From an uncultured Clostridia bacterium (GTDB taxonomy: Bacteria > Bacillota > Clostridia > TANB77 > CAG-508), in NCBI GenBank assembly GCA_934167495.1, contig CAKPKP010000001.1:48904-112903 (forward strand): a DNA stretch of 64,000 bases, in the 5' to 3' direction. A program made the position numbers and the translations under genes. The notes beneath the pieces were generated by a model that worked only from the letters and a program-made list of their open reading frames with translations, did not search any database and had not been told where the DNA came from. Within the stretch, counting starts at the first letter, position 1; each line of letters starts with the position of its first letter. Positions 5,733 through 28,577 of the stretch are shown piece by piece.

Positions 5733-6884
5733 GTGAACATTGTGGTAGCACTAATAATAGCCATTTTAGTAATATCAATCGTAGTATTAGTTGTATATAA
5801 TTTATCAATTTCAAGAAAATTGACATCTTGGAAGAATTTTAAAGATAAACTTGTAAATAATATAGAAGTAGTACAAGACTTCATTACTACGATTGGTGAT
5901 GGAGAGCCAACAGACGAAAAACTTAGAAGAATAAATGAAGTAGTAATAGAAAAATATAATATTAAATATTCTACAATAGTTGTTTTTAATGGTGCTGAAT
6001 ATGTTATTAAGGCTTCCAATGTTGACCGTAAACATTATGATGCATTAACAAATTTACATACAGAAGAGTTATTTCAAGATAGTGTTGCAAGTGCAATACC
6101 TAAGTATGTAACAATAGAAAAAGAAGGAGAAAAACTACCTTATCAAAAAACTGAGTTCGGTAGAGCTAAATCAGCAATGTTTTTCCCTTTATACATTGAT
6201 AATGTTTATATAGGATATTGGATTCTTGAAAGTGGAAAGATGCATGCTTTTGATGATTTAGATACAACTGTTATAGAAGGCATAAAAGATAATATTATTT
6301 CAACATTAAAAGCTATTTCATATCAAGATACAATAGAAAACATAGTAAGAAAAGATTTGTTCACAGGTCTTAATTCAGCCGAATATCTTTATGGACAAGC
6401 TAAAAACATTATAGATTCTCAAACTTCATCTGCTGTATGTATGTTTAGAATTACAAATATTGAGAAAATAAATGAAACAATAAGCAGAAATATGGGAAAT
6501 CAAATAATTATTGAAACAAGTAATGCTGTAAAAGAAAAAATGTATTCAAAATATATTTTTGTTAGATACATGGGACCTAAATTTGCAATTGTATTTACTG
6601 GTGTAGAAGTAAATTCTTTAGATGAGTTTTTAGAAGATTTGAAAGAAGAAATTGAATCAATAGTTCTTGAAGAAGAAATAGAAGAACCAGAAGAAAGCAA
6701 GAAAAAATCATCTAAAGCTACAACAAAGAAGAAAGTAAAGAAGAATACAAGAGTTGCAAGCCCAAAAGTAAATTTTGTTGTAACAACATATTATAAAGGA
6801 ACACCAATAGAAAATGTTACTAAAAAACTAGAAGAATATCTAGATAATGCTCCAAAGAGCGAAAATCAAATAAATTATATTTAA
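5733..6884 (+). CDS. membrane-anchored protein with degenerate GGDEF-like domain and Lys-rich tail
   Basis: N-terminal TM. DLFTGLNS...FRITNIEKIN...GPKFAIVFTG is laid out like a diguanylate cyclase, but the GGDEF motif is replaced. GTG start at 5733 or 5742. Confidence 0.45.
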   Translation: MNIVVALIIAILVISIVVLVVYNLSISRKLTSWKNFKDKLVNNIEVVQDFITTIGDGEPTDEKLRRINEVVIEKYNIKYSTIVVFNGAEYVIKASNVDRKHYDALTNLHTEELFQDSVASAIPKYVTIEKEGEKLPYQKTEFGRAKSAMFFPLYIDNVYIGYWILESGKMHAFDDLDTTVIEGIKDNIISTLKAISYQDTIENIVRKDLFTGLNSAEYLYGQAKNIIDSQTSSAVCMFRITNIEKINETISRNMGNQIIIETSNAVKEKMYSKYIFVRYMGPKFAIVFTGVEVNSLDEFLEDLKEEIESIVLEEEIEEPEESKKKSSKATTKKKVKKNTRVASPKVNFVVTTYYKGTPIENVTKKLEEYLDNAPKSENQINYI

Positions 6885-6896
6885 AAGGAGGTAATT

Positions 6897-7151
6897 ATGG
6901 CTATAGATAAAACAATGAGCTTTAAAGTAGAAAGGGACAAAAACGTAAGGGCAAAGGAAATTTTGAAAGAGGTATATCAAGCTTTAGTAGAAAAGGGATA
7001 TAATCCAATAAATCAAATAGTTGGATATATATTATCAGGAGATCCAACTTATATTACAAGCCATAATGATGCTAGAAATTTAATTAGACTTATAGAAAGA
7101 GATGAGCTTTTAGAAAAAATGGTAAAATATTACATAGGATTGGAAGAGTAA
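6897..7151 (+). CDS. ireB: UPF0297/IreB family protein
   Basis: 84 aa. Conserved position immediately upstream of ruvX. Sequence: [12 protein letters not shown]...[32 protein letters not shown]. Confidence 0.8.
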
Positions 7152-7154
7152 TAA

Positions 7155-7574
7155 ATGAGAACTTTAGGAATTGACTATGGAGATGCAAGAGTTGGAATAG
7201 CAATATCTGATGCTTTAGGAATAACAGCTCAAGGTTTGGAAACAATAAGTTATAATGGAAATGATAAAATTCTTTTAAGGCGCTTAGATGAAATAATAAC
7301 AGAATACAATGTTTCTAAAATAATTGTTGGAATGCCACTTAATATGAATGGAACAAAAACAATAAGAGCAGAAGTTACAGAAAAGTTTATTCACAAACTT
7401 AAATGCAAATACAATAAAATTGAAATTGAAACTGTTGATGAAAGATTAACAACAGTTGAAGCTCACAAAACTATGAATTTTTTAGATATAAATAAAACAA
7501 AGAAAAAAGGTTTAGTAGATACTATATCTGCTGTATATATATTAGAAACCTATTTAAACAAAACAAGTCATTAG
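7155..7574 (+). CDS. ruvX: putative pre-16S rRNA nuclease / Holliday junction resolvase-like RuvX (YqgF)
   Basis: MRTLGIDYGDARVGIAISD... is the canonical YqgF N-terminus. 139 aa. Confidence 0.9.
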   Translation: MRTLGIDYGDARVGIAISDALGITAQGLETISYNGNDKILLRRLDEIITEYNVSKIIVGMPLNMNGTKTIRAEVTEKFIHKLKCKYNKIEIETVDERLTTVEAHKTMNFLDINKTKKKGLVDTISAVYILETYLNKTSH

Positions 7575-12914: not shown

Positions 12915-13742
12915 ATGATAATAAAGGAGATAAAAACTAATGATTATTTAACAAAATCTAATTTACCATCAAGTGACTATGTTATTAATCCATATGTTGG
13001 ATGTACACATGGATGCAAATACTGTTATGCATCATTTATGAAACATTTTACAGGTCATGATGAAAAATGGGGAGAATTTATAGATATAAAATCTTGTAAT
13101 AAAAAGATTGATTTGAAAAAGATATCTGGTAAAAATGTATTTTTATCATCTGTTACAGATTGTTATAATGAATTAGAAGAAAAATATTGTATAACAAGAA
13201 ATATATTAGAACAATTGCAATATTCTGATTGTAATTTATCCATATCAACAAAATCAAAATTAATTTTAAGAGATATAGATATTTTAAAGAAAATTAAAAA
13301 TTTAACTGTTAGTTTATCTATTAATACTTTAGATGAAAAATTTAGAAGTGATATGGATAATGCAAGTTCAATAAATGAAAGATTAGAAACGTTAAGAAAA
13401 TTACATGAAAACGGAATATATACAATATTATTTATGTCTCCAATTTTTCCATACATTACAGAATGGAAGAAAATAATAGAAATATCAAAAGATTTTGTTG
13501 ATGAATATTGGTTTGAAAACCTTAACCTAAGAGGTAGTTACAAAAAAGAAATTTTAGAATATATAAAAACTAATTATAGTAAACTTTATGATAGCTACGT
13601 AGAGATATATGTTAAGAATAAGGATGAATATTGGAGAAATTTAGCTATTGAAATAGAGAAGTTTTGTGATGAAAATAATATTAAATATATAAATTACTTT
13701 TACCATAAAGAGTTGGTAGAGAAAAAGAAGGTTAAAATATAA
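12915..13742 (+). CDS. radical SAM protein of the spore-photoproduct-lyase (SplB/COG1533) family
   Basis: NPYVGCTHGCKYCYASF contains the CxxxCxxC cluster in the SPL-family context. 275 aa. Confidence 0.7.
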   Translation: MIIKEIKTNDYLTKSNLPSSDYVINPYVGCTHGCKYCYASFMKHFTGHDEKWGEFIDIKSCNKKIDLKKISGKNVFLSSVTDCYNELEEKYCITRNILEQLQYSDCNLSISTKSKLILRDIDILKKIKNLTVSLSINTLDEKFRSDMDNASSINERLETLRKLHENGIYTILFMSPIFPYITEWKKIIEISKDFVDEYWFENLNLRGSYKKEILEYIKTNYSKLYDSYVEIYVKNKDEYWRNLAIEIEKFCDENNIKYINYFYHKELVEKKKVKI

Positions 13743-13778
13743 TCGAATTTTGGAGTTGAAATAGAAAGGAGAATAGAA

Positions 13779-14381
13779 ATGAAAGAAGTGTTATTCGCAA
13801 CAGGAAATGAAAGTAAAGTTAAGAGATTTCAAAAAGGGCTTCTAGCTAAAGAAATAAAAATAATTACATTAAATGATATAGATACAAAGAATATCGAAAT
13901 TGTAGAAGATGGAAAAAATGCAATAGAAAATGCATTAATAAAAGCAAGAGCATATGCTAAAATTCAAGATATTCCTGTGTTTGCTATGGATGATAACTTA
14001 TACATTGAGGGAATACCAGAAGATAAACAGCCAGGAATGTATGTAAGAAGAGTTAATGGAAAAAGGTTAAATGATGATGAAATGATAGATTATTATTCAA
14101 ATTTAGCACATACTTATGGAGAAAATGGAAAGTTAACTTGCAGATGGGTTTATGGTATAGCTGTTATAAATAATGGAGTTGAATCAACGTACACTTGGAG
14201 CAAAGATGATTTTTATATAGTTGATAAGCCTTCAAATAAAATTAATCCAGGATATCCTTTAAATACAATATCGATAAATAAAAAACTAAATAAATATTTT
14301 ACAGAAATAACTGAAGACGATAAAAATGAAATTAAAGAAGATGAAAGTGATGTTATAGAATTTCTTTGTAAGAATTTATAA
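13779..14381 (+). CDS. Ham1/RdgB-like non-canonical purine NTP pyrophosphatase family protein
   Basis: LFATGNESKV..., ENALIKARAYAK and FAMDDNLYIEG match ITPase motifs. Confidence 0.55.
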   Translation: MKEVLFATGNESKVKRFQKGLLAKEIKIITLNDIDTKNIEIVEDGKNAIENALIKARAYAKIQDIPVFAMDDNLYIEGIPEDKQPGMYVRRVNGKRLNDDEMIDYYSNLAHTYGENGKLTCRWVYGIAVINNGVESTYTWSKDDFYIVDKPSNKINPGYPLNTISINKKLNKYFTEITEDDKNEIKEDESDVIEFLCKNL

Positions 14382-14424
14382 TGTAAGATTTAATTAAATA
14401 GTAATTTGTGGAGGTATTATAACT

Positions 14425-14721
14425 ATGAGAATAAAACAGCAAAAGCAGATAAAATCATTTTTAATCGAAGAGTTTGGGATAGATAAAGGGAATGCTTTGT
14501 TTGATAAGCAAGAGACAATGCTTAATGAACTTATTAAAAATAGGACTTATAGGAATAGTTGTGGGAACATTATTACTATTGATAAAATAAGTATAAGAGA
14601 TATTAAAATTTTAGCAAGTAAAGAAATTGAGTATGATAAAAAACTAGGTAAAGAAATAATGTATTTAGAATTAATTAAACTCTCTATATATGAATTAAAG
14701 AAAATGCACATGAGAGATTAA
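14425..14721 (+). CDS. hypothetical protein sharing a 20-aa C-terminal segment with the 16571 gene
   Basis: C-terminus SKEIEYDKKLGKEIMYLELIK versus SKEIEYAKKLGKEVMYLEPIK in the 16571 gene. ~85% DNA identity over ~60 bp. The N-terminus is unrelated. Confidence 0.4.
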   Translation: MRIKQQKQIKSFLIEEFGIDKGNALFDKQETMLNELIKNRTYRNSCGNIITIDKISIRDIKILASKEIEYDKKLGKEIMYLELIKLSIYELKKMHMRD

Positions 14722-14737
14722 ATATAAAGGAGAAAAT

Positions 14738-15409
14738 ATGGATAGAAAAATGTTAGAAAATATTTATAATGATTGTTTAGAAATGGCTGATATAATTAAA
14801 AATCCAATATTAAAAGAATGTTGTAAAAAAATATATAGTGATTATAAAGAAAAATTAATAAATAAACCTGCTACACCTGGTTCACATCATTTTTATAAAG
14901 GAGGATTATTATTTCATATATATAGTGTTACAAAAAATGCTATGGCAATTTGTGATTTGTATCCTAACTTAAATGTAGATAAAGATTTAATAATTTTTGG
15001 CTCATTAGTGCATGATATAGGAAAATGTAATGATTTTAATGATTTTTCTGACAGTGAAAATTATAATTCTATAAATGGCAATAGTATGGATTTATTAGGT
15101 CATTCTTATGAAGGAACACATATTGTTGAGAACTATTTAAAAAATTATGATATAGATGAACAATTTAAAAATCAGATTATACATATGATAGGCAGTCACA
15201 TGAATGAATATAGTGAATGGGGAGCTTTAGTTTTACCTAAAATGCTTGAAGTTATAATTATAAATTATGCTGATAGTATGGATGCATATCTTGAACCAGC
15301 ACACAAAATTATTAATAATACAAAAAAAGGTGAAAAATATAAAGTTGCAAATGCACCAAGATATTATTATAAATCATTAAATCCATATTACGAAAATGAT
15401 AATTTGTAA
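14738..15409 (+). CDS. HD domain phosphohydrolase
   Basis: H...HD motif: HIYSVTKNAM...FGSLVHDIGK. Confidence 0.7.
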   Translation: MDRKMLENIYNDCLEMADIIKNPILKECCKKIYSDYKEKLINKPATPGSHHFYKGGLLFHIYSVTKNAMAICDLYPNLNVDKDLIIFGSLVHDIGKCNDFNDFSDSENYNSINGNSMDLLGHSYEGTHIVENYLKNYDIDEQFKNQIIHMIGSHMNEYSEWGALVLPKMLEVIIINYADSMDAYLEPAHKIINNTKKGEKYKVANAPRYYYKSLNPYYENDNL

Positions 15410-15517
15410 TTTAAACCTTTTTACGCAATTATTATAAATAGATAATTTATAAAATTAATATTTGGAAGATGTTTTGAAAAATAAAAGTATTATTTAAGTA
15501 ATAAAGAAAGAGGGAAT

Positions 15518-16447
15518 ATGTTAGAAAAGATAAAAACCTCATGTAATTATGTTGCAAAAAATAGTAAATATGTAGCAATTAATTATGATGTATTAGATGA
15601 ATATATAAAAACTATAGATATGAGAAAAATAAAATTTTGGCTTAGTAGTAATCCATATAATTTATTTGATATGAATATTGATAAAATAATTAACTTTATG
15701 TTGATATTTGAATCAATAGATTATTGCTTTTGGGGACAACCTAAATGGACAATAGAAACAATAGATGGGAAAAAATCTGGTTCAGATGCTTTATTATACG
15801 CATTATTAAGTCATGTAAAGAAAGTAGATAAGATTGATTTTTCAAATATTTCATTTGAAGAATTTTCGGATATATTAAAAGGTAATGTTGATATTCCATT
15901 TTTAAAAGAAAGATATGAGACTGTTGTTTCAATATGTAATGTAGTTAATAAAAAAATGAATGGCAATTTTTATAATTATATTGAGAAAATCAATGAAGAT
16001 ACTGAATTATTTGATATTATTATTAATAATTTTAGTGAGTTTTGCGATGTAAGAGAATACGATAATAAAAAAATATATTTTTATAAATTAGCACAATTGT
16101 TAACTTCTGATATTTTGCATATAAAAGAACTAATTAATGGTACAAAAGTTGATTATAGTCATTTGGTAGGATGTGCTGATTATAAAATACCACAAACTTT
16201 AAGGGCTTTAGGAATAGTAGAGTTTAATTCTGAATTATCTAAGATTGTAGATAATAAGCAGTTAATAGATGAAAATTCAATGTATGAAGTAGAAATAAGA
16301 GCAAATATGATTGCAGTTATTAGTTATATTAACTCAAAATTAAAAGATACTTGTTCTATAGATATAAATGATTATTTATTTTTAGCTTCTAAAAAAATTA
16401 AAGATATAGCCAAACCATATCATATGTGTAAAAACAAAAATTACTAA
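15518..16447 (+). CDS. hypothetical protein, possibly DUF2419/Qng1-like (queuosine salvage family); low confidence
   Basis: 309 aa, soluble. A SIDYCFWG-type motif recalled from this family. The neighbours are nucleoside-hydrolase-like. Confidence 0.3.
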   Translation: MLEKIKTSCNYVAKNSKYVAINYDVLDEYIKTIDMRKIKFWLSSNPYNLFDMNIDKIINFMLIFESIDYCFWGQPKWTIETIDGKKSGSDALLYALLSHVKKVDKIDFSNISFEEFSDILKGNVDIPFLKERYETVVSICNVVNKKMNGNFYNYIEKINEDTELFDIIINNFSEFCDVREYDNKKIYFYKLAQLLTSDILHIKELINGTKVDYSHLVGCADYKIPQTLRALGIVEFNSELSKIVDNKQLIDENSMYEVEIRANMIAVISYINSKLKDTCSIDINDYLFLASKKIKDIAKPYHMCKNKNY

Positions 16448-18998: not shown

Positions 18999-19050
18999 AA
19001 TATTGACTTAAATAAATTTATGTGTTATAAATAAAGCTAGCTTGAATTTT

Positions 19051-19125
19051 GGCCCGTTGGTCAAGCGGCTAAGACGCCACCCTCTCAAGGTGGAATCATG
19101 GGTTCGATTCCCGTACGGGTCACCA
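19051..19125 (+). tRNA. tRNA-Glu, anticodon CUC
   Basis: GGCCCGTTGGTCAAGCGG...GGTTCGATTCCCGTACGGGTCACCA forms a cloverleaf. Anticodon loop CTCTCAA, stem CCACC/GGTGG. Near-identical to Bacillus tRNA-Glu apart from the anticodon. CCA is encoded. Confidence 0.85.
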
Positions 19126-19416
19126 AAAATTAAAAGTATCAAAGATTTTCTTTGGTACTTTTTTTACATTATAAAGAGTGTTCTTCAAATTTTTTTAATA
19201 TAAATAATTAGTTTAAAGCAAATTTCGTATGTAAGTAAATAAGCGGGATTTAACAAAGTACTAAATAGTAAAAATGTTATTAATATTTGCTTTTATAAAA
19301 AGAATAAAATTTTTTAATTTTAATGCAAACAAATGTATTGACAAAAGAAAAAATGTTTGGTAATATATATTTACTTTAAATGTATTAACTAAATTGATTG
19401 ATGGGGGGAATACAAA

Positions 19417-21043
19417 TTGATAAACACACTACATATAAAAAATATTGGAATAATAGACGATCTAAGTATAAATTTAAATAATGGCTTTAATGTAATAACA
19501 GGAGAAACTGGAGCACGGAAAAACATTAATAATAGATTCACTTCAAATTTTAGCAGGTGGAAGATTCTCAAAAGAAATGATTAGAAATGGAGAAAAGTAT
19601 TCATATGTTGAAATGGCATTATGCTTACCAGAAGATGATGAATACGATGAAAATGTAATAGTTTCTCGAGAAATAAATACTAACGGAAAAAATCTATGTA
19701 AAATAAATGGAAGAATGGTAACTGTAGCAGAATTAAAAGAATTTATGAAAAAAGTAATAGATATACATGGTCAAAACGATAATCAATCAATATTAGATGT
19801 AAATACACACATAAAATTATTAGATGAATTTGCTGGAGAAAAAATAAAAAATATAGCCAATAAATACAACATATATTATAAAAAATATAATGATATTAAG
19901 TTAGAATTAAAAAATAACTATGGTGATGACATTGAAAAACAAAGAAAGTTAGATTTATTAAAATACCAATTAAATGAAATACAAGCAGCAAATCTAAAAG
20001 ATTCAGAAGAGGAGGAATTAGAAAATAAAAGAAAAATAATAGTTAATTCTGAGAAAATATCAGAAAATTTATCAGAGGCAGATTATTGCTTATCTGAAGG
20101 GGGAACGGATAGTATAAATAGTGCTATAAAAGCATTAGAAAAAATAGAAGATTTAGATACGAGATATAGTGATATTTTAAATTCTTTAAAAGGAGTATAT
20201 TATGAGTTTCAAGAAATATCACGAGATGTTTCAGAGTTAAAAGAAGATAATTCTTTTGATGATATAAACAAAAAAGAAATAGAAGAAAGACTAGATTTAA
20301 TATATTCATTAAAAAGAAAATATGGAAATACAATAAAAGATATACTTGATTATGAAGAGAAAATAAAAAATGAGATTTTTAATATAGAGAATTTAGAAGA
20401 GTATACAAATAAATTAAAAAATGAACTAAAAGATATAGAAAATAAAATGCAAGAATTGGCAGTTCAAATGCATGATATAAGAGAAAAAGTAAGTACAGAA
20501 TTAAGTGAAAAAATTAATTCTGAATTAAAAGATTTAGAGATGAAAAATGCATCATTTAGTATAGAAATAAAATTTAATAATGAGAAAAGATTTAATAAAA
20601 ATGGTTTAGATGAAATAGAGTTTTTAATTTCTACAAATATTGGAGAACTACCAAAGCCATTAGTAAAGATAGCTTCAGGTGGAGAAATGTCAAGAATAAT
20701 GTTGGGGATAAAAAATGTACTTGCAAATGTAGATACTGTTCCAGTAATGGTATTTGATGAAATTGATACAGGAATTAGTGGTATAGCTGCAAATATGGTG
20801 GGATTAAAAATGAAAGAAATATCTAAAAATCATCAAGTAATAGCGATAACACATTTAGCTACAATTGCTGCAAAAGGTGATTATAATTATTATATTAGTA
20901 AACAAACAATAGATGCTAGAACCAGAACAAATGTAAAAGTCTTAAACGAAGAAGAAACAATAAGAGAAATTGCAAGAATTGCAAGTGGAGATATAACAGA
21001 AATATCATTAAATCATGCAAGAGAATTAAGACGATGCGTATAA
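19417..21043 (+). pseudogene. recN: DNA repair protein RecN with +1 frameshift inside the Walker A motif
   Basis: GGGGGGA RBS plus TTG at 19417 gives LINTLHIKNIGIIDDLSINLNNGFNVITGETGA. An extra C at 19516 breaks frame, and GKTLIIDSLQILAGGRFSKEMIRNG... continues in the next frame as the track ORF 19577..21043. The rest is a typical RecN SMC-like protein. Confidence 0.75.
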
Positions 21044-23578: not shown

Positions 23579-24724
23579 ATGAAAATAAGATATTTTGACC
23601 ATGCAGCGACAACTCCAGTGGATAATGAAGTATTAAAAGAAATGATGCCATTTTTTAGTCAGAATTTTGGTAATCCTTCTTCAATTTATAGTATAGGAAA
23701 ATCAAATAAACATGAAGTTCAAATTGCAAGAAATAGAGTAGCAACTGCATTGAATGTAAAACCTCAAGAAATATATTTTACAAGTTGTGGTAGCGAAAGT
23801 GATAATTTAGCAATAAAAGGAATTGCATATGGAAACAGAAAAAAGGGAAATCATATTATTACAACTAGAATTGAGCATCCAGCCGTATTAAAAACTTGTG
23901 AATTTTTAGAAAAGCAAGGATATCACATAACATATTTATCTCCAAATAGTAATGGAATTGTTAGTGTAAAAGAATTGGAAAGATATATTATGCCAAATAC
24001 AATTTTGGTAAGTGTTATGTTTGCAAACAATGAAATAGGAACGATTCAGGATATTAAAGCTATAGGTGAATTATGTAGAAGAAAAAATGTATATTTCCAT
24101 ACAGATTGTGTTCAAGCAATTGGAAATGTAAGAATAGATGCTAAAGAAATGAATATTGATAGTTTATCTTTATCTGCACATAAATTTTATGGACCAAAAG
24201 GAGTAGGTGCTGTATATATAAGAGAAGGTATAAATTTTGTAAGAATTCAAGATGGTGGACATCAGGAAAGAGATAAAAGGGCGGGTACTGAAAATGTAGC
24301 TGGAATAGTAGGGCTTGGAAAAGCAATAGAATTAGCTAACAATAGTTTAGATGAATATAATAATCACCTTACTAGGTTAAGAGATTATTATATTGAAAAT
24401 GTGCAAAAAAGAATACCAAATATTAAAATAAATGGAGACTTAGAAAAAAGATTACCAGGAAATGCTAATATTTCATTTATAGGCGCAGATGGCGAAAAAG
24501 TATTAGAAGAATTAGATAAGATTGGAATATGTGCTTCAAGTGGTTCTGCTTGTAGTGCAGGATTATTAAATCCATCACATGTTTTACTAGCAATAGGAGT
24601 AGCTCCAAATGTTGCATCTACATCTATTAGAATAACTTTTGGAAAAGAAAATACATTAGAAGATGTTGATTATTTGGTTGAAAATTTAACAAATATAATT
24701 GAGAAAATAAGAAATGAAAAATAA
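23579..24724 (+). CDS. nifS: cysteine desulfurase (NifS/IscS class V aminotransferase)
   Basis: SAHKFYGPKGVGAVYIR carries the PLP-lysine motif. 381 aa. Confidence 0.9.
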   Translation: MKIRYFDHAATTPVDNEVLKEMMPFFSQNFGNPSSIYSIGKSNKHEVQIARNRVATALNVKPQEIYFTSCGSESDNLAIKGIAYGNRKKGNHIITTRIEHPAVLKTCEFLEKQGYHITYLSPNSNGIVSVKELERYIMPNTILVSVMFANNEIGTIQDIKAIGELCRRKNVYFHTDCVQAIGNVRIDAKEMNIDSLSLSAHKFYGPKGVGAVYIREGINFVRIQDGGHQERDKRAGTENVAGIVGLGKAIELANNSLDEYNNHLTRLRDYYIENVQKRIPNIKINGDLEKRLPGNANISFIGADGEKVLEELDKIGICASSGSACSAGLLNPSHVLLAIGVAPNVASTSIRITFGKENTLEDVDYLVENLTNIIEKIRNEK

Positions 24725-24752
24725 GAGGATTCAGAATTGAATCCTCTTTATT
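24725..24752 (+). terminator. rho-independent terminator (GAGGATTCAGAATTGAATCCTC plus TTTATT)
   Basis: Perfect hairpin immediately after the nifS stop. Confidence 0.6.
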
Positions 24753-24910
24753 ATATAATAGGAAAGTATAGAATATACAACTACACTGTAGAAAAAAGTT
24801 ACTGAAAAAAATTTTGATTTTTAAATAGTTGAAATTTGTAATTTTATAGAATATAATACAACTGTAAATGAAAAATACCTAAAAAATATGTATGTATAGG
24901 AGGTAGAAAT

Positions 24911-25681
24911 ATGGAATTTGCTGATATTATTCTTGAAGAGAAAGATTTAGTAAAGAAAATAGAAATAATTTCATTTTTAAAGAAGAAGGAAAAGATTTTT
25001 TTCGATACATCTGTTATTCTAAAAGCTGAAATTACAAAACAATTTATGGATATAATGAATATTGATGTAGACAAAAACGAAGTTATTACAGCATGCTTAG
25101 TTTATGGATTTAAAAGAATTAATTCACCTCAAGAAATTCAAAGAATAAAAAAAGAAGGAAAGCTAGATTATGAATATTTAAAATCTCTTGGATTTAATGA
25201 TAAGTTTTGTAAAATTTGTAGTGAATATAATAGGTATAATGAGAAAGAAGGATATGTAAGAGAAAAAGAAGGGGACATACTAGAACTGGTAGATAATTTT
25301 GGAGGTCTTATAATGCACAGACCAGAAAGGCTGGCTTTTCCAATTGAAGATGCTATACAAGTTTTAGAATATAAAAATTTACATCATAAAAATAATAGGT
25401 ATTTAGAAGAGTTTAAAAAGTTTATAAATATTATGGAAGCAATTGAAACTAAAAGAATGGTAGGTTCATATACTAAATTGCAAAATTGCTTTAATATGTT
25501 AAAAAGAGAAGATATTGCAGGTGCTGTAAGAGCAATATATGACCATGAAGATAGAATTGCTATTGCAATAGGATTAGATGTTGATGGAAATTCTCAAACA
25601 AGATTAGAAAATGTAGGAAAATTTTCCGCAAGACTTATGGAATTAAATAAAATTGAAAATGAAGAAAAGAAAGGAAAATAA
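24911..25681 (+). CDS. hypothetical protein, tightly coupled upstream of the endonuclease Q homologue
   Basis: 256 aa. No recognisable motif. The stop is 4 nt before the EndoQ start. Confidence 0.45.
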   Translation: MEFADIILEEKDLVKKIEIISFLKKKEKIFFDTSVILKAEITKQFMDIMNIDVDKNEVITACLVYGFKRINSPQEIQRIKKEGKLDYEYLKSLGFNDKFCKICSEYNRYNEKEGYVREKEGDILELVDNFGGLIMHRPERLAFPIEDAIQVLEYKNLHHKNNRYLEEFKKFINIMEAIETKRMVGSYTKLQNCFNMLKREDIAGAVRAIYDHEDRIAIAIGLDVDGNSQTRLENVGKFSARLMELNKIENEEKKGK

Positions 25682-25685
25682 AACA

Positions 25686-26873
25686 ATGTATGAAATTTTT
25701 GCAGATTTACATGTACATATTGGTAGAAGTGAAAATAATAAACCAATAAAAATAACAGCCGCTAGAAGCTTAAATTTTGCTAATATAGCAAAAGAATGTG
25801 CAGATAGAAAAGGGATAAATGTTGTAGGAATAATAGATTGTGCATCACCATATGTAATTGAAGATATAGAGAATTTTTTGAAAACTGGTGAAGCCTATGA
25901 AATTGCAGATGGAGGAATAATATATAAAGATAAAGTATGTATTATATTAGGTAGTGAAATTGAAACATCTGAAATAAATGAACAAGGAAAAACAGGAAGT
26001 GCACATAATTTATGTTATTTTCCAACATTAAACGATATAAAAGCTTTTTCAAATGAAATGAGTCATCATATAAAAAATATTACATTAAGTTCACAAAGAG
26101 CTGATATATCAGCATATGAACTTATAGATATTGTTGAAAAATATAATGGTATATTAATACCAGCTCATGCATTTACACCACATAAAAGTTTTTATGGAAA
26201 TTGCACAGATAGATTAGAAAAAATATTCAAAGAAAAATATAATAGAATTTTAGCTATAGAGTTAGGATTAAGTTCTGATACTTTTTTAGCAGATAAAATT
26301 TCAGAATTAGAAACAAAAACATTTTTAACAAATTCAGATGCACATTCCCTTCCTAAAATTGCAAGAGAATATAACAAAATTTTAGTAAATGATATAAGCT
26401 TTAAAGAGTTTTTAAAAGCAATAAAGAACGAAGATGGAAGAAAGATAATAGCAAATTATGGATTAGATCCAAAACTTGGAAAATATCATAGAACATTTTG
26501 CGAAAAATGTGGTAAAAATGTTCCAGGTGATGCGCCAGTTACAGTGTGTCATGATTGTGATAGTAAAAACATAACTATGGGAGTTTTTGATAGAATAGAA
26601 ATTATAAAGGACAAGCCAGATACTAAGAGTCCAGAAAATAGACCACCATACATATATCAAATTCCACTTACATTTATTCCAGGAATAGGCAAAAAATCAA
26701 TGGATAAATTATTAGATACATTTCAAAATGAAATGAATATATTACATAAATTATCATTTGATGATATAAATTCTGTCGTTGGTGAAAAGGTTGCAAACAA
26801 TATAATTTCAGCAAGAGAAGGAAAAATTAAAATTGTTGAAGGTGGCGGAGGAGTTTACGGAAAAGTAGAATAA
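25686..26873 (+). CDS. endonuclease Q homologue (PHP-domain DNA repair endonuclease, TIGR00375 family)
   Basis: ADLHVHIGRS, CYFPTLN, IPAHAFTPHKSFYG, ELGLSSDTFLADKI, LTNSDAHSLPKIAREYN, GRKIIANYGLDPKLGKYH, the Cys4 ribbon CEKCG...CHDCD, ENRPPYIYQIPL and IVEGGGGVYGKVE match archaeal EndoQ segment by segment. Start refined from the track's 25653 to the ATG at 25686. Confidence 0.8.
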   Translation: MYEIFADLHVHIGRSENNKPIKITAARSLNFANIAKECADRKGINVVGIIDCASPYVIEDIENFLKTGEAYEIADGGIIYKDKVCIILGSEIETSEINEQGKTGSAHNLCYFPTLNDIKAFSNEMSHHIKNITLSSQRADISAYELIDIVEKYNGILIPAHAFTPHKSFYGNCTDRLEKIFKEKYNRILAIELGLSSDTFLADKISELETKTFLTNSDAHSLPKIAREYNKILVNDISFKEFLKAIKNEDGRKIIANYGLDPKLGKYHRTFCEKCGKNVPGDAPVTVCHDCDSKNITMGVFDRIEIIKDKPDTKSPENRPPYIYQIPLTFIPGIGKKSMDKLLDTFQNEMNILHKLSFDDINSVVGEKVANNIISAREGKIKIVEGGGGVYGKVE

Positions 26874-26965
26874 AGTATAAAAAAACTTATTATTTAAAGT
26901 TCTTTTTTCGAATCTTATAACATACACATTATGTAGTAAAGTAAATAAATGAGGTAAGGTATAAG

Positions 26966-27587
26966 ATGAAAAAAGAAAGCATATTATTTGAGTATATAAA
27001 AAGAAATAAAATGGATTATATTGTAACTATAATAGTATTAATTGTTGGCATTAGTATACGGTATATTATTTATAAATAATGCTGATGGAGAAAAAGCAAT
27101 GAATATTACTTCATCAATTGAAAATATACAATCTTTAATAAAACAAGGGGATTCTATTGATAAAGGAATATTACTAAATAATTGTTTAAAGCAAAATATT
27201 ATAGTTGTAATACTAATTTGGTTTATTGGATGTACAATAATTGGTATACCAATTTTGTTTGGAATAATATTGTATAAAGGCTTCTGCATAGGATATACAA
27301 TTTCAGCAGTAATAGCTACAACTGAGTTTAGAAAAGCAATAAGCTTTATTATTTTATCGTTATTACCGCAAAACATAATAATTATTCCAACAATTTTGCT
27401 TATAACAGTTAGTGGAATAAAATTATATAAATATATAATGAAAGATAAAAACAAAGGTAACATAAAAATAGAGCTGATAAGACATACAATGATATCTTTA
27501 ATAGCTTTAGTTGCTATAATAATAGCATCTTTTATAGAAGTATATATTTCAACAAATTTATTATTATTTTTTAAAGATTTTTTGTAA
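26966..27587 (+). pseudogene. spoIIM: stage II sporulation protein M with apparent frameshift near codon 28
   Basis: ATG at 26966 gives MKKESILFEYIKRNKMDYIVTIIVLIVGISIRYIIYK and stops at 27077. The conserved SpoIIM body (LVYGILFINN...NNCLKQNIIVVILIWFIGCTIIGIPILFGIILYKGFCIGY) lies in the +1 frame from 27042. Both frames match the SpoIIM N-terminal TM1, so a single-base insertion at ~27048-27060 is implied. Confidence 0.65.
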
Positions 27588-27695
27588 AAGTATTTACAAT
27601 TTAAGAATGTTTTGATATAACATATATAGTTTATGTAAATTAATTAGGAGTGCATTTCCATAAAAATGCAAAATCAATGTATAGGGGAGCCAAAA

Positions 27696-28577
27696 ATGGA
27701 AAAACAAATTAATCTTTTTTTAGAATTTCTTGCGAATGACAAAAAATTATCTGCAAATACTTTGCAGTCATATAAAAGAGACATAGTACAATATCAAGAA
27801 TATGTAGAAGAAAATAAAATTAATTATTTAAAAGCAACAAATGAAAATATAAAGGATTACTTTGAATATTTAAAAAAATTAAATAAGAAAACTTCAACAA
27901 TTTCAAGAAGTTTAGCCTCTATTAGATCTTTTTACCAATATTTAATAAGAGTGAAAAAAATAAAAAAAGATCCAACAAATGGCATGCAATCACCAAAGAT
28001 TGAAAAAAAAGCACCAAGCATATTATCTTCAAAAGAAGTAGAATTATTATTAGAGCAACCTAAGAATGTAGACTTAAAAGGAATTAGAGATAAAGCAATG
28101 TTAGAGTTCGCATATGCTACAGGAATGAGAGTTACAGAAATTATATCATTAGATATAGATGATGTTAACATTGAAGAAAAATATGTTACTTGTAGTAATG
28201 GATTCAAAAAAAGAAATATACCACTTGGTACATTATCTTTAAAAGCATTACAAGAATACATAGAAAATGCAAGACCAATATTAATAAAAGATGAAGAAAC
28301 AAAAGCTTTATTCGTAAATATAAATGGAAAAAGACTTACAAGACAAGGATTTTGGAAGATAGTTAAATATTATAAAGAACAAGCTCATATAACAAAAGAC
28401 ATAACACCACATGTTTTAAGACATTCATTTGCAACACATTTGTTACAAAATGGAGCAGATTTAAAAGCAATTCAAACAATGCTAGGACATTCAGACATAT
28501 CATCAACACAAGTTTATATGCAATTTCAAAATGAAAGTTTAAAAAAGGTTTATAATAAAGCTCATCCAAGAGCATAG
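27696..28577 (+). CDS. xerD: tyrosine recombinase XerD
   Basis: MEKQINLFLEFLANDKKLSANTLQSYKRDI is the N-terminal core-binding domain. The C-terminus HVLRHSFATHLLQNGADLKAIQTMLGHSDISSTQVY is the catalytic R-H-R-Y region. Confidence 0.85.
   Translation: MEKQINLFLEFLANDKKLSANTLQSYKRDIVQYQEYVEENKINYLKATNENIKDYFEYLKKLNKKTSTISRSLASIRSFYQYLIRVKKIKKDPTNGMQSPKIEKKAPSILSSKEVELLLEQPKNVDLKGIRDKAMLEFAYATGMRVTEIISLDIDDVNIEEKYVTCSNGFKKRNIPLGTLSLKALQEYIENARPILIKDEETKALFVNINGKRLTRQGFWKIVKYYKEQAHITKDITPHVLRHSFATHLLQNGADLKAIQTMLGHSDISSTQVYMQFQNESLKKVYNKAHPRA

Follow-up and report, generated by a model that had tools for sequence, protein, structure and literature searches.

Organisation of the locus

The DNA considered here, referred to as the window, is a stretch of 64,000 nucleotides (nt) from an uncultured Clostridia bacterium (contig CAKPKP010000001.1), with a G+C content of about 26%. 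Two open reading frames (ORFs) lie in tandem on its forward strand. The first (24911-25681, starting with ATG) encodes a protein of 256 amino acids (aa), hereafter called the partner, and the second (25686-26873) encodes a homologue of endonuclease Q (EndoQ) of 395 aa. The TAA stop codon of the partner gene at 25679-25681 and the ATG of the EndoQ gene at 25686 are separated by a spacer of 4 nt. An earlier sequence-only reading had described the same two-gene layout, and both the sequence and independent gene calls agree with it. The same gene pair was called on another metagenome assembly of this species. The sections below deal with the two proteins, the conservation of their adjacency in a clade of gut Clostridia, and the role that the partner, a predicted catalytically dead HD-GYP-like protein, may play next to EndoQ.

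The pair would be expressed as one transcription unit, possibly extending into the downstream gene spoIIM. The features of the locus are collected in Table 1. Terminator-like sites are enriched (three found, 0.4 expected). In DNA this rich in AT, promoter-like sites show no enrichment, and the one listed is a consensus match only. The placement of the EndoQ ribosome-binding site inside the partner gene is compatible with translational coupling of EndoQ. A TTG codon at 25653 was considered as the EndoQ start and ruled out: homologues begin with M-x-E-[IV]-F-[AT]-DLHVH, and the start is therefore the ATG at 25686. An Rfam scan of 24400-27700 revealed no riboswitch and no other RNA.

Table 1. Coordinates of the features at the EndoQ locus in the window
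Feature	Position	Strand	Basis
Intrinsic terminator of the preceding cysteine-desulfurase-like (aminotransferase class V) gene	24723..24748	+	11-bp stem, 4-nt loop, T-run; left boundary of the unit
Sigma-70-type promoter-like site, TTGAAA-17-TATAAT	24829..24857	+	11/12 consensus match, top score of the region
Shine-Dalgarno sequence AGGAGG of the partner gene	24898..24903	+	7 nt 5' of the ATG, read from the sequence
Partner residues 1-178, predicted catalytically dead HD-GYP-like domain of the HD superfamily	24911..25444	+	Predicted structure, family alignment
Partner residues 179-256 and stop, fast-evolving helical tail	25445..25681	+	Predicted structure; comparison of split and fused loci
Ribosome-binding site AAAGGA of the EndoQ gene	25670..25675	+	Within the final partner codons, 10 nt 5' of the ATG
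Endonuclease Q family protein, 395 aa	25686..26873	+	PHP domain; homology to PfuEndoQ and TIGR00375
C4 zinc finger of EndoQ (C272, C275, C288, C291)	26499..26558	+	Aligns with PfuEndoQ C249/C252/C268/C271
EndoQ segment matching Pfam IMS_HHH	26631..26720	+	Residues 316-345, E 5e-6

The endonuclease Q protein

The assignment of the second gene to EndoQ, proposed in the sequence-only reading, is well founded. In a phmmer comparison, residues 25-394 match residues 17-380 of the archaeal PfuEndoQ (PDB 5ZB8/7K30) with an E-value of 7e-47, and all the motifs named in that reading are present: ADLHVH (residues 6-11), AHAFTP (160-165), NSDAH (216-220), the zinc-ribbon cysteines 272, 275, 288 and 291, and GGGGVYG (386-392). 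The comparison with the family model TIGR00375, which had been suggested as a check, gave a match with an E-value of 3e-82 that covers profile positions 25-374 of 374. Its score of 277 bits lies under the curated cut-off of 326.6. TIGR00375 is a "hypothetical equivalog" model with a strict cut-off, and the cut-off was missed because of divergence, not because of missing homology.

The active site is intact. The metal ligands H8, H10, E76, H84, H139, D193 and H195 of PfuEndoQ correspond to H9, H11, E91, H107, H161, D218 and H220, of which H9 and H11 were assigned via the DLHVH motif and the others via the alignment with PfuEndoQ. The lesion pocket (T142, E167-L170, N191 and D193 in PfuEndoQ) is found as T164, E192-L-G-L195, N216 and D218. 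The roles of the PfuEndoQ residues in metal binding, lesion recognition and the zinc finger are taken from the structure paper (PMC5961232). The two proteins share full-length homology, the PHP ligands, the lesion pocket, the C4 zinc finger, the C-terminal helical domain and the GGGG-YG end. They differ at W144 of PfuEndoQ, proposed to stack into the duplex, which is His166 in the window protein and in all bacterial sequences aligned, and in an insertion of 8 residues between the ligands E91 and H107. A further difference is found at the C-terminus. In PfuEndoQ, the PCNA-interacting (PIP) motif QRTLLQYI lies in a disordered region past residue 400 and was removed from the 1-400 crystal construct (PMC5961232). 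The window protein aligns no further than PfuEndoQ residue 380 and ends 3 residues past GGGGVYG; it therefore lacks the archaeal PIP/PCNA tail, as the sequence-only reading had noted.

Bacterial members of the family are known, and activity has been reported for the EndoQs of B. pumilus and B. subtilis (PMC5961232). A relative in Brevibacillus laterosporus, labelled "endonuclease Q family protein" by NCBI/PGAP, is about 43% identical (tblastn), with all metal ligands invariant and with spoIIM and xerD likewise downstream. At E<=1e-10, EndoQ has matches in more than 7,900 protein clusters. Together with the synteny shared between Bacilli and Clostridia, this number means that the description of EndoQ as sporadic in bacteria understated its distribution. 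EndoQ evolves slowly (74-85% identity). In eight clade loci (L033, L036, L037, L043, L044, L046, L053 and L059), the top EndoQ tblastn segment begins only at query residue 48-178, and a frameshift, an insertion or a break in the assembly may interrupt the N-terminal part of EndoQ there.

By homology, the window nuclease is thus a further member of a known and already annotated family, and the best explanation is that the second gene encodes a functional bacterial EndoQ, as predicted from the intact active site. Such a PHP-fold, zinc-dependent enzyme would flip a deaminated or missing base (deoxyuridine, deoxyinosine, deoxyxanthosine or an abasic site) into the pocket beside the metal site and place a nick directly 5' of the lesion, which would open an alternative excision-repair route.

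The partner protein: family and predicted fold

The partner had been described as a protein with no recognisable domain. This holds for the libraries: no significant match was found in Pfam, NCBIfam, PHROGs, PADLOC or the PDB (phmmer and profile searches), and the top PDB profile matches (Cmr5, a c-di-GMP receptor and a formin) are at chance level, with E-values of 0.08-2. It does not hold for the structure. The predicted model, with a predicted local distance difference test (pLDDT) score of 87.4 and a predicted template-modelling (pTM) score of 0.83, shows the five-helix core of the HD superfamily with extra helices of the HD-GYP type, as in cyclic-dinucleotide phosphodiesterases, followed by a helical tail.

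The protein belongs to a small family. A word-indexed search returned 146 clusters of relatives, and 186 representatives at 50% identity came from an HMMER search run exhaustively over 1.84 billion proteins. The family occurs in at least 517 species-level genomes, and the 80 genomes listed all belong to uncultured gut "Clostridia" (Clostridium sp. CAG:508, CAG:567 and Candidatus Scatovivens). No relatives were found in a scan of viral contigs or in a tblastn search of plasmids. The partner evolves at an ordinary rate: its median Kimura distance is 0.44, compared with 0.28 for EndoQ, 0.29 for xerD and 0.71 for spoIIM.

The core comprises about 178 residues. In an alignment of 27 diverse members, K16, G94, F95, C103, R108, R117, E125, R137, R140 and N162 are invariant, and the acidic residues D32, E120, D122 and E125 are conserved. 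The family signature consists of FFD-x5-K, T-x-C-L-x-Y, GF-x3-FC-x-IC, R-x8-R, E-x-D-x2-E-L and R-P-E-R, together with the helical tail. The link to the HD superfamily is seen most clearly in the relative P0072, which matches Pfam HD with an E-value of 6.7e-4 (20.4 bits, cut-off 22) and HD_5 with 9e-4 (19.4 bits, cut-off 27.2). This best relative also stays below the gathering scores, and the window partner itself matches neither model.

Loss of the catalytic site

The metal ligands of the HD-GYP protein PmGH are E185, H189, H221-D222, H250, H276-H277 and D305, while R314 and K317 bind the cyclic-dinucleotide substrate (PMC4159591). An active HD-GYP domain requires five His plus Asp ligands, and replacement of the His ligands by Ala abolishes PmGH activity (PMC4159591). 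The same 27 aligned partner sequences contain no invariant or 90%-conserved His. An hhalign comparison with a canonical HD protein encoded in the window places Y65-G66 of the partner opposite the HD dyad, with a probability of 1.2%, which makes it a pointer only. Across the family, the position of the HD dyad reads Y-[GDSAT] and the HHE equivalent reads YNR. Mapping by spacing alone would equate Y106-N-R108 with HHE, G114-Y-V with GYP and D128 with D305 of PmGH. The G114-Y115-V116 motif at GYP spacing in the window partner is unconserved, and the 179-aa forms have lost it by deletion. Of the PmGH ligands, the family retains only the D305-equivalent acidic residue (D/E128). The invariant R137 and R140 lie as far from D128 as R314 and K317 of PmGH lie from D305, a correspondence which again comes from spacing only.

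PmGH is inactive without its His ligands and the partner family has none; the partner is therefore considered a pseudo-enzyme. Alignment and model together describe it as a predicted HD-GYP-like HD domain without its former catalytic residues. Inactive HD-GYP domains can work through ligand binding or protein contacts (PMC4159591). The partner differs from the inactive HD-GYP and HDOD proteins used for comparison (Bd1817; HDOD 3HC1; SadB 9QZK). In Bd1817 (PDB 3TM8), the HD dyad is still in place together with a di-iron site, whereas no His ligand is left in the partner family; the partner also has no Pfam HDOD (PF08668) or HD-GYP match above threshold. No description of an inactive HD-GYP or HDOD protein tied to a DNA-repair nuclease was found in the library searches made here.

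The tail of the partner

The tail helices at residues 186-195 and 202-219 are modelled at a pLDDT of about 96 and pack on the core, and the confidence of the remainder drops to about 50. In most relatives, the tail is a separate ORF of 54-136 aa (mostly 74-127 aa) which overlaps the core stop codon by ATGA. Fusion of core and tail, as in the window, was found in about 11 loci. The separate small ORFs are only loosely homologous to the window tail. Many of the separate tail proteins (L022-L089) and the long paralogues (C-termini of P0010, P0014, P0023, P0024 and P0058) end in an acidic stretch with a final Arg (…DER, …EER, …ELDR, …FDR), and the window tail ends in …EEKKGK.

Conservation of the neighbourhood

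The profile of the partner was used to fetch 80 species genomes, which contained 69 short forms and 11 N-extended forms. EndoQ lies directly downstream in 64 of the 69 short-form loci. Three of the others are cut by a contig end, and EndoQ is missing from two. Counted over the short-form genome loci whose downstream sequence could be read, the figure is 67 of 69. The common order is the core gene (179-181 aa), the small tail ORF, EndoQ, spoIIM and xerD. The spacer between partner and EndoQ is 3-18 nt in the fused forms and typically 24-110 nt after a tail ORF. The gene upstream of the pair differs among loci while the pair persists. A second flanking context also retains it, with gpsA, a zinc-ribbon protein gene and dtd before the pair and no spoIIM (L001, L008, L028, L051).

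The neighbourhood was also studied from the side of EndoQ in a metagenome scan, for which an EndoQ alignment headed by the Brevibacillus sequence served as the query. Among EndoQs at least 73% identical to that of the window, which make up the clade, the partner lies upstream in 44 of 52 assessable loci. Among the Bacilli-like EndoQs, which are 42-52% identical to that of the window, a NUDIX hydrolase gene lies directly upstream in all 24 assessable loci. No locus has both. In Brevibacillus, the order is NUDIX, endonuclease Q family protein, spoIIM, fur, DUF4227 and xerD, with a spacer of 2 nt after NUDIX. NUDIX and EndoQ overlap by up to 37 nt or lie up to 74 nt apart; the spacing is typically between a 4-nt overlap and a 3-nt gap, and an overlap of exactly 4 nt is frequent. 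The NUDIX box is intact in the hydrolases before EndoQ in L093 (5420-7167) and in 24 metagenome loci (L094-L115, L119, L134, L161). No discussion of a conserved NUDIX-EndoQ pairing was found in the literature searched.

The slot before EndoQ is thus occupied by NUDIX in one lineage and by the dead HD-GYP-like protein in another. Both arrangements share EndoQ, spoIIM, xerD and a closely coupled upstream gene with a nucleotide-hydrolase fold. They differ in that the Bacilli-like gene encodes an apparently active NUDIX enzyme, whereas the window gene encodes an unrelated, dead HD-GYP-like protein with a tail. Neither the window nor the clade loci contain a NudF-like gene. The order EndoQ-spoIIM-xerD is shared by Brevibacillus and the clade, and is therefore an old Firmicute arrangement, common to Bacilli and Clostridia.

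The shared slot raises the question of an enzymatic role. The partner could be an active nucleotide phosphohydrolase which, in place of the Bacilli NUDIX enzyme, cleans the deoxynucleotide pool of dUTP and dITP or processes the nicked product. Its HD-superfamily fold, its position exactly in the NUDIX slot and the four conserved acidic residues would suit this role. It is nevertheless a very unlikely one, and an active HD hydrolase was rejected for lack of the His ligands. The dyad and HHE positions are replaced as described above, Ala at the equivalent ligands kills the activity of PmGH (PMC4159591), and the family scores remain under the Pfam HD cut-offs.

Functional link or inherited gene order

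The sequence-only reading had suggested that the partner works with EndoQ and that its co-occurrence with EndoQ should be checked. The adjacency proved to be common in other genomes and conserved across the clade; the partnership itself is plausible only. Taken as a whole, the statement that the partner acts as a subunit of a predicted functional EndoQ, non-catalytic and with a regulatory or adaptor role, and that the two are encoded in one transcription unit, has in our judgement an even chance of being right. The 4-nt spacer, with the EndoQ ribosome-binding site inside the partner gene, supports the link. The partner, which would be made together with EndoQ, lacks His metal ligands and offers invariant Arg, Lys and acidic residues as well as a helical tail. 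With these, it may bind EndoQ, a phosphate-bearing ligand (a nucleotide or DNA), or both, and may tune or target the nuclease. We infer that the two proteins may be coupled physically or functionally, and any ligand of the partner is likewise conjectural.

The chief rival explanation is inherited gene order without a functional tie. According to it, the partner is unrelated to EndoQ and is an independent gene, for instance for signalling or sporulation, at the 5' edge of an old EndoQ-spoIIM-xerD block, co-transcribed by position. This explanation is possible, although we consider it somewhat doubtful, and several observations speak for it and against a functional partnership. A total of 62 loci, among them 57 of the 80 genome loci, have spoIIM-xerD after the pair, and part of the adjacency may therefore be inherited with this larger syntenic block. 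Brevibacillus and other Bacilli-like loci have EndoQ-spoIIM-fur-xerD without the partner. Each gene is also found without the other, so that the link is not obligate: in L019 (5992-7572) and L021 (about 5992-7503), intact core and tail ORFs lead straight to spoIIM-xerD with EndoQ missing, and in 8 of the 52 clade EndoQ loci, tmcAL or coaE lies upstream in place of the partner or NUDIX. The N-extended paralogues (318 and about 415 aa, with a helical extension of about 135 residues) are located elsewhere, never beside EndoQ. Rate covariation was tested with partial correlations of pairwise Kimura distances in 64 loci. This rough test gave no signal specific to partner and EndoQ, with a partial r of 0.18 between core and EndoQ and of 0.54 between core and spoIIM. 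Also against a functional partnership, EndoQ of B. pumilus has been reported to be active alone.

On the other side, inherited order does not readily account for the close coupling of the two genes, with a spacer of a few nucleotides in the fused forms, or for the retention of the pair in a second, unrelated flanking context. A gene with a nucleotide-hydrolase fold, NUDIX in 24 of 24 loci and the partner in 44 of 52, in the slot upstream of EndoQ would also be odd as a coincidence.

Related domains in defence-type fusions

Domains homologous to the partner occur in larger proteins. In P0298 and P0317 (520 aa), such a domain (E 2e-25 and 3e-21) lies C-terminal to a calcineurin-like phosphoesterase, which matches the PADLOC model PDLC00736 "Effector/Endonuclease" (E 4e-44 and 4e-33) as well as NCBIfam anti-phage phosphoesterases (DS8/DS9). 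In P0328 (840 aa), a partner-like domain follows a STAND-type (STAND/AAA_16) NTPase. The fusion genes adjoin large serine recombinases, in L090 (1044-2606, P0298), where smpB is also adjacent, and in L091 (347-2869, P0328). This context suggests that they sit on mobile elements and are candidate defence genes. Proteins built in this way usually employ their non-catalytic domain for sensing or regulation, and the recurrence of related domains in PADLOC-type effectors and beside a STAND NTPase supports a sensor or regulator role of the partner.

The pairing of a partner-like domain with a metal-dependent phosphoesterase thus recurs in defence metallophosphoesterase effectors. The effectors are single fused chains with a calcineurin-like nuclease on mobile elements, whereas the window has separate genes and a PHP nuclease. 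It is conceivable that the window pair is itself a defence-like module: on sensing a phage product or a nucleotide signal, the dead HD-GYP domain would allow EndoQ to cleave foreign DNA, for example DNA that contains uracil. The fusions to effector, anti-phage phosphoesterase-like and STAND NTPase domains and the apparent mobile elements next to serine recombinases point in this direction. Nonetheless, this explanation is highly improbable. Neither window protein matches PADLOC, the species genomes examined share the locus as a stable housekeeping context on the chromosome, EndoQ evolves slowly, and viral contigs and plasmids yielded no relatives of the partner. In addition, the fused domains keep the fold signature but are without R108, R117, R137 and R140, the four Arg that are invariant in the EndoQ-linked forms.

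A more specific form of the regulatory reading was also considered. The dead HD-GYP domain could be a receptor for a nucleotide second messenger, cyclic di-AMP (c-di-AMP) or another cyclic (di)nucleotide, which gates a lesion-specific nuclease, and the same module would be reused in cis by defence effectors and the STAND NTPase. c-di-AMP is a DNA-integrity signal in spore-forming Firmicutes. We regard this extension as speculative and rather unlikely.

Other features of the window

A Ham1/ITPase gene had been proposed to belong, with EndoQ, to a strategy against deaminated bases in an AT-rich genome. The gene is indeed present (13779-14381, Pfam E 9e-18), but 10.5 kb with many unrelated genes separate it from the pair. 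As an unlinked housekeeping gene, it was rejected as a component of the system, and it adds nothing to the case for such a strategy. It is part of an upstream run of nucleic acid-related genes at 12915-16447, which also comprises a radical SAM protein (12915-13742), a canonical HD-domain protein (14738-15409) and a queuosine-salvage protein (15518-16447).

Downstream of EndoQ, spoIIM (26967-27587) appears frameshifted. Its first 37 codons (MKKESILFEYIKRNKMDYIVTIIVLIVGISI...) lie in one frame, with a stop at about 27078, and the remainder (…GILFINNADGEK…) runs on in a second frame from about 27042. In relatives, spoIIM is a single uninterrupted ORF of 204-218 aa. The frameshifted sequence is also present in two further assemblies of the species (L174, L175) and is therefore no local assembly error. 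The spoIIM gene of the window may be a pseudogene in a lineage losing sporulation. Further upstream, the match of a RecN/SMC-like ORF (19577-21043, 488 aa) to the SMC_N profile begins only at position 78, and about 580 nt without a long ORF precede this reading frame (region 18999-21043). The ORF could be a truncated or frameshifted recN.

Conclusion

EndoQ is a biochemical tool and a well-studied archaeal repair enzyme, and its biology in bacteria is scarcely explored. To our knowledge, there is no bacterial counterpart of the EndoQ-PCNA interaction. EndoQ of the window is ordinary and known; the modestly new lead, and one that can be tested, is its conserved partner. Almost every EndoQ gene of the Firmicutes follows a closely coupled gene with a nucleotide-hydrolase fold, NUDIX in the Bacilli-like loci and, in one clade of gut Clostridia, a predicted catalytically dead HD-GYP-like protein. 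The latter defines a protein family recognised by none of the libraries used here. If the partner is not a sensor, the result would be the annotation of a conserved hypothetical protein beside a known repair gene. If it is a ligand sensor, it would represent a new receptor class derived from HD-GYP, and should the second-messenger reading be true, nucleotide signalling would be directly tied to the incision of damaged bases.

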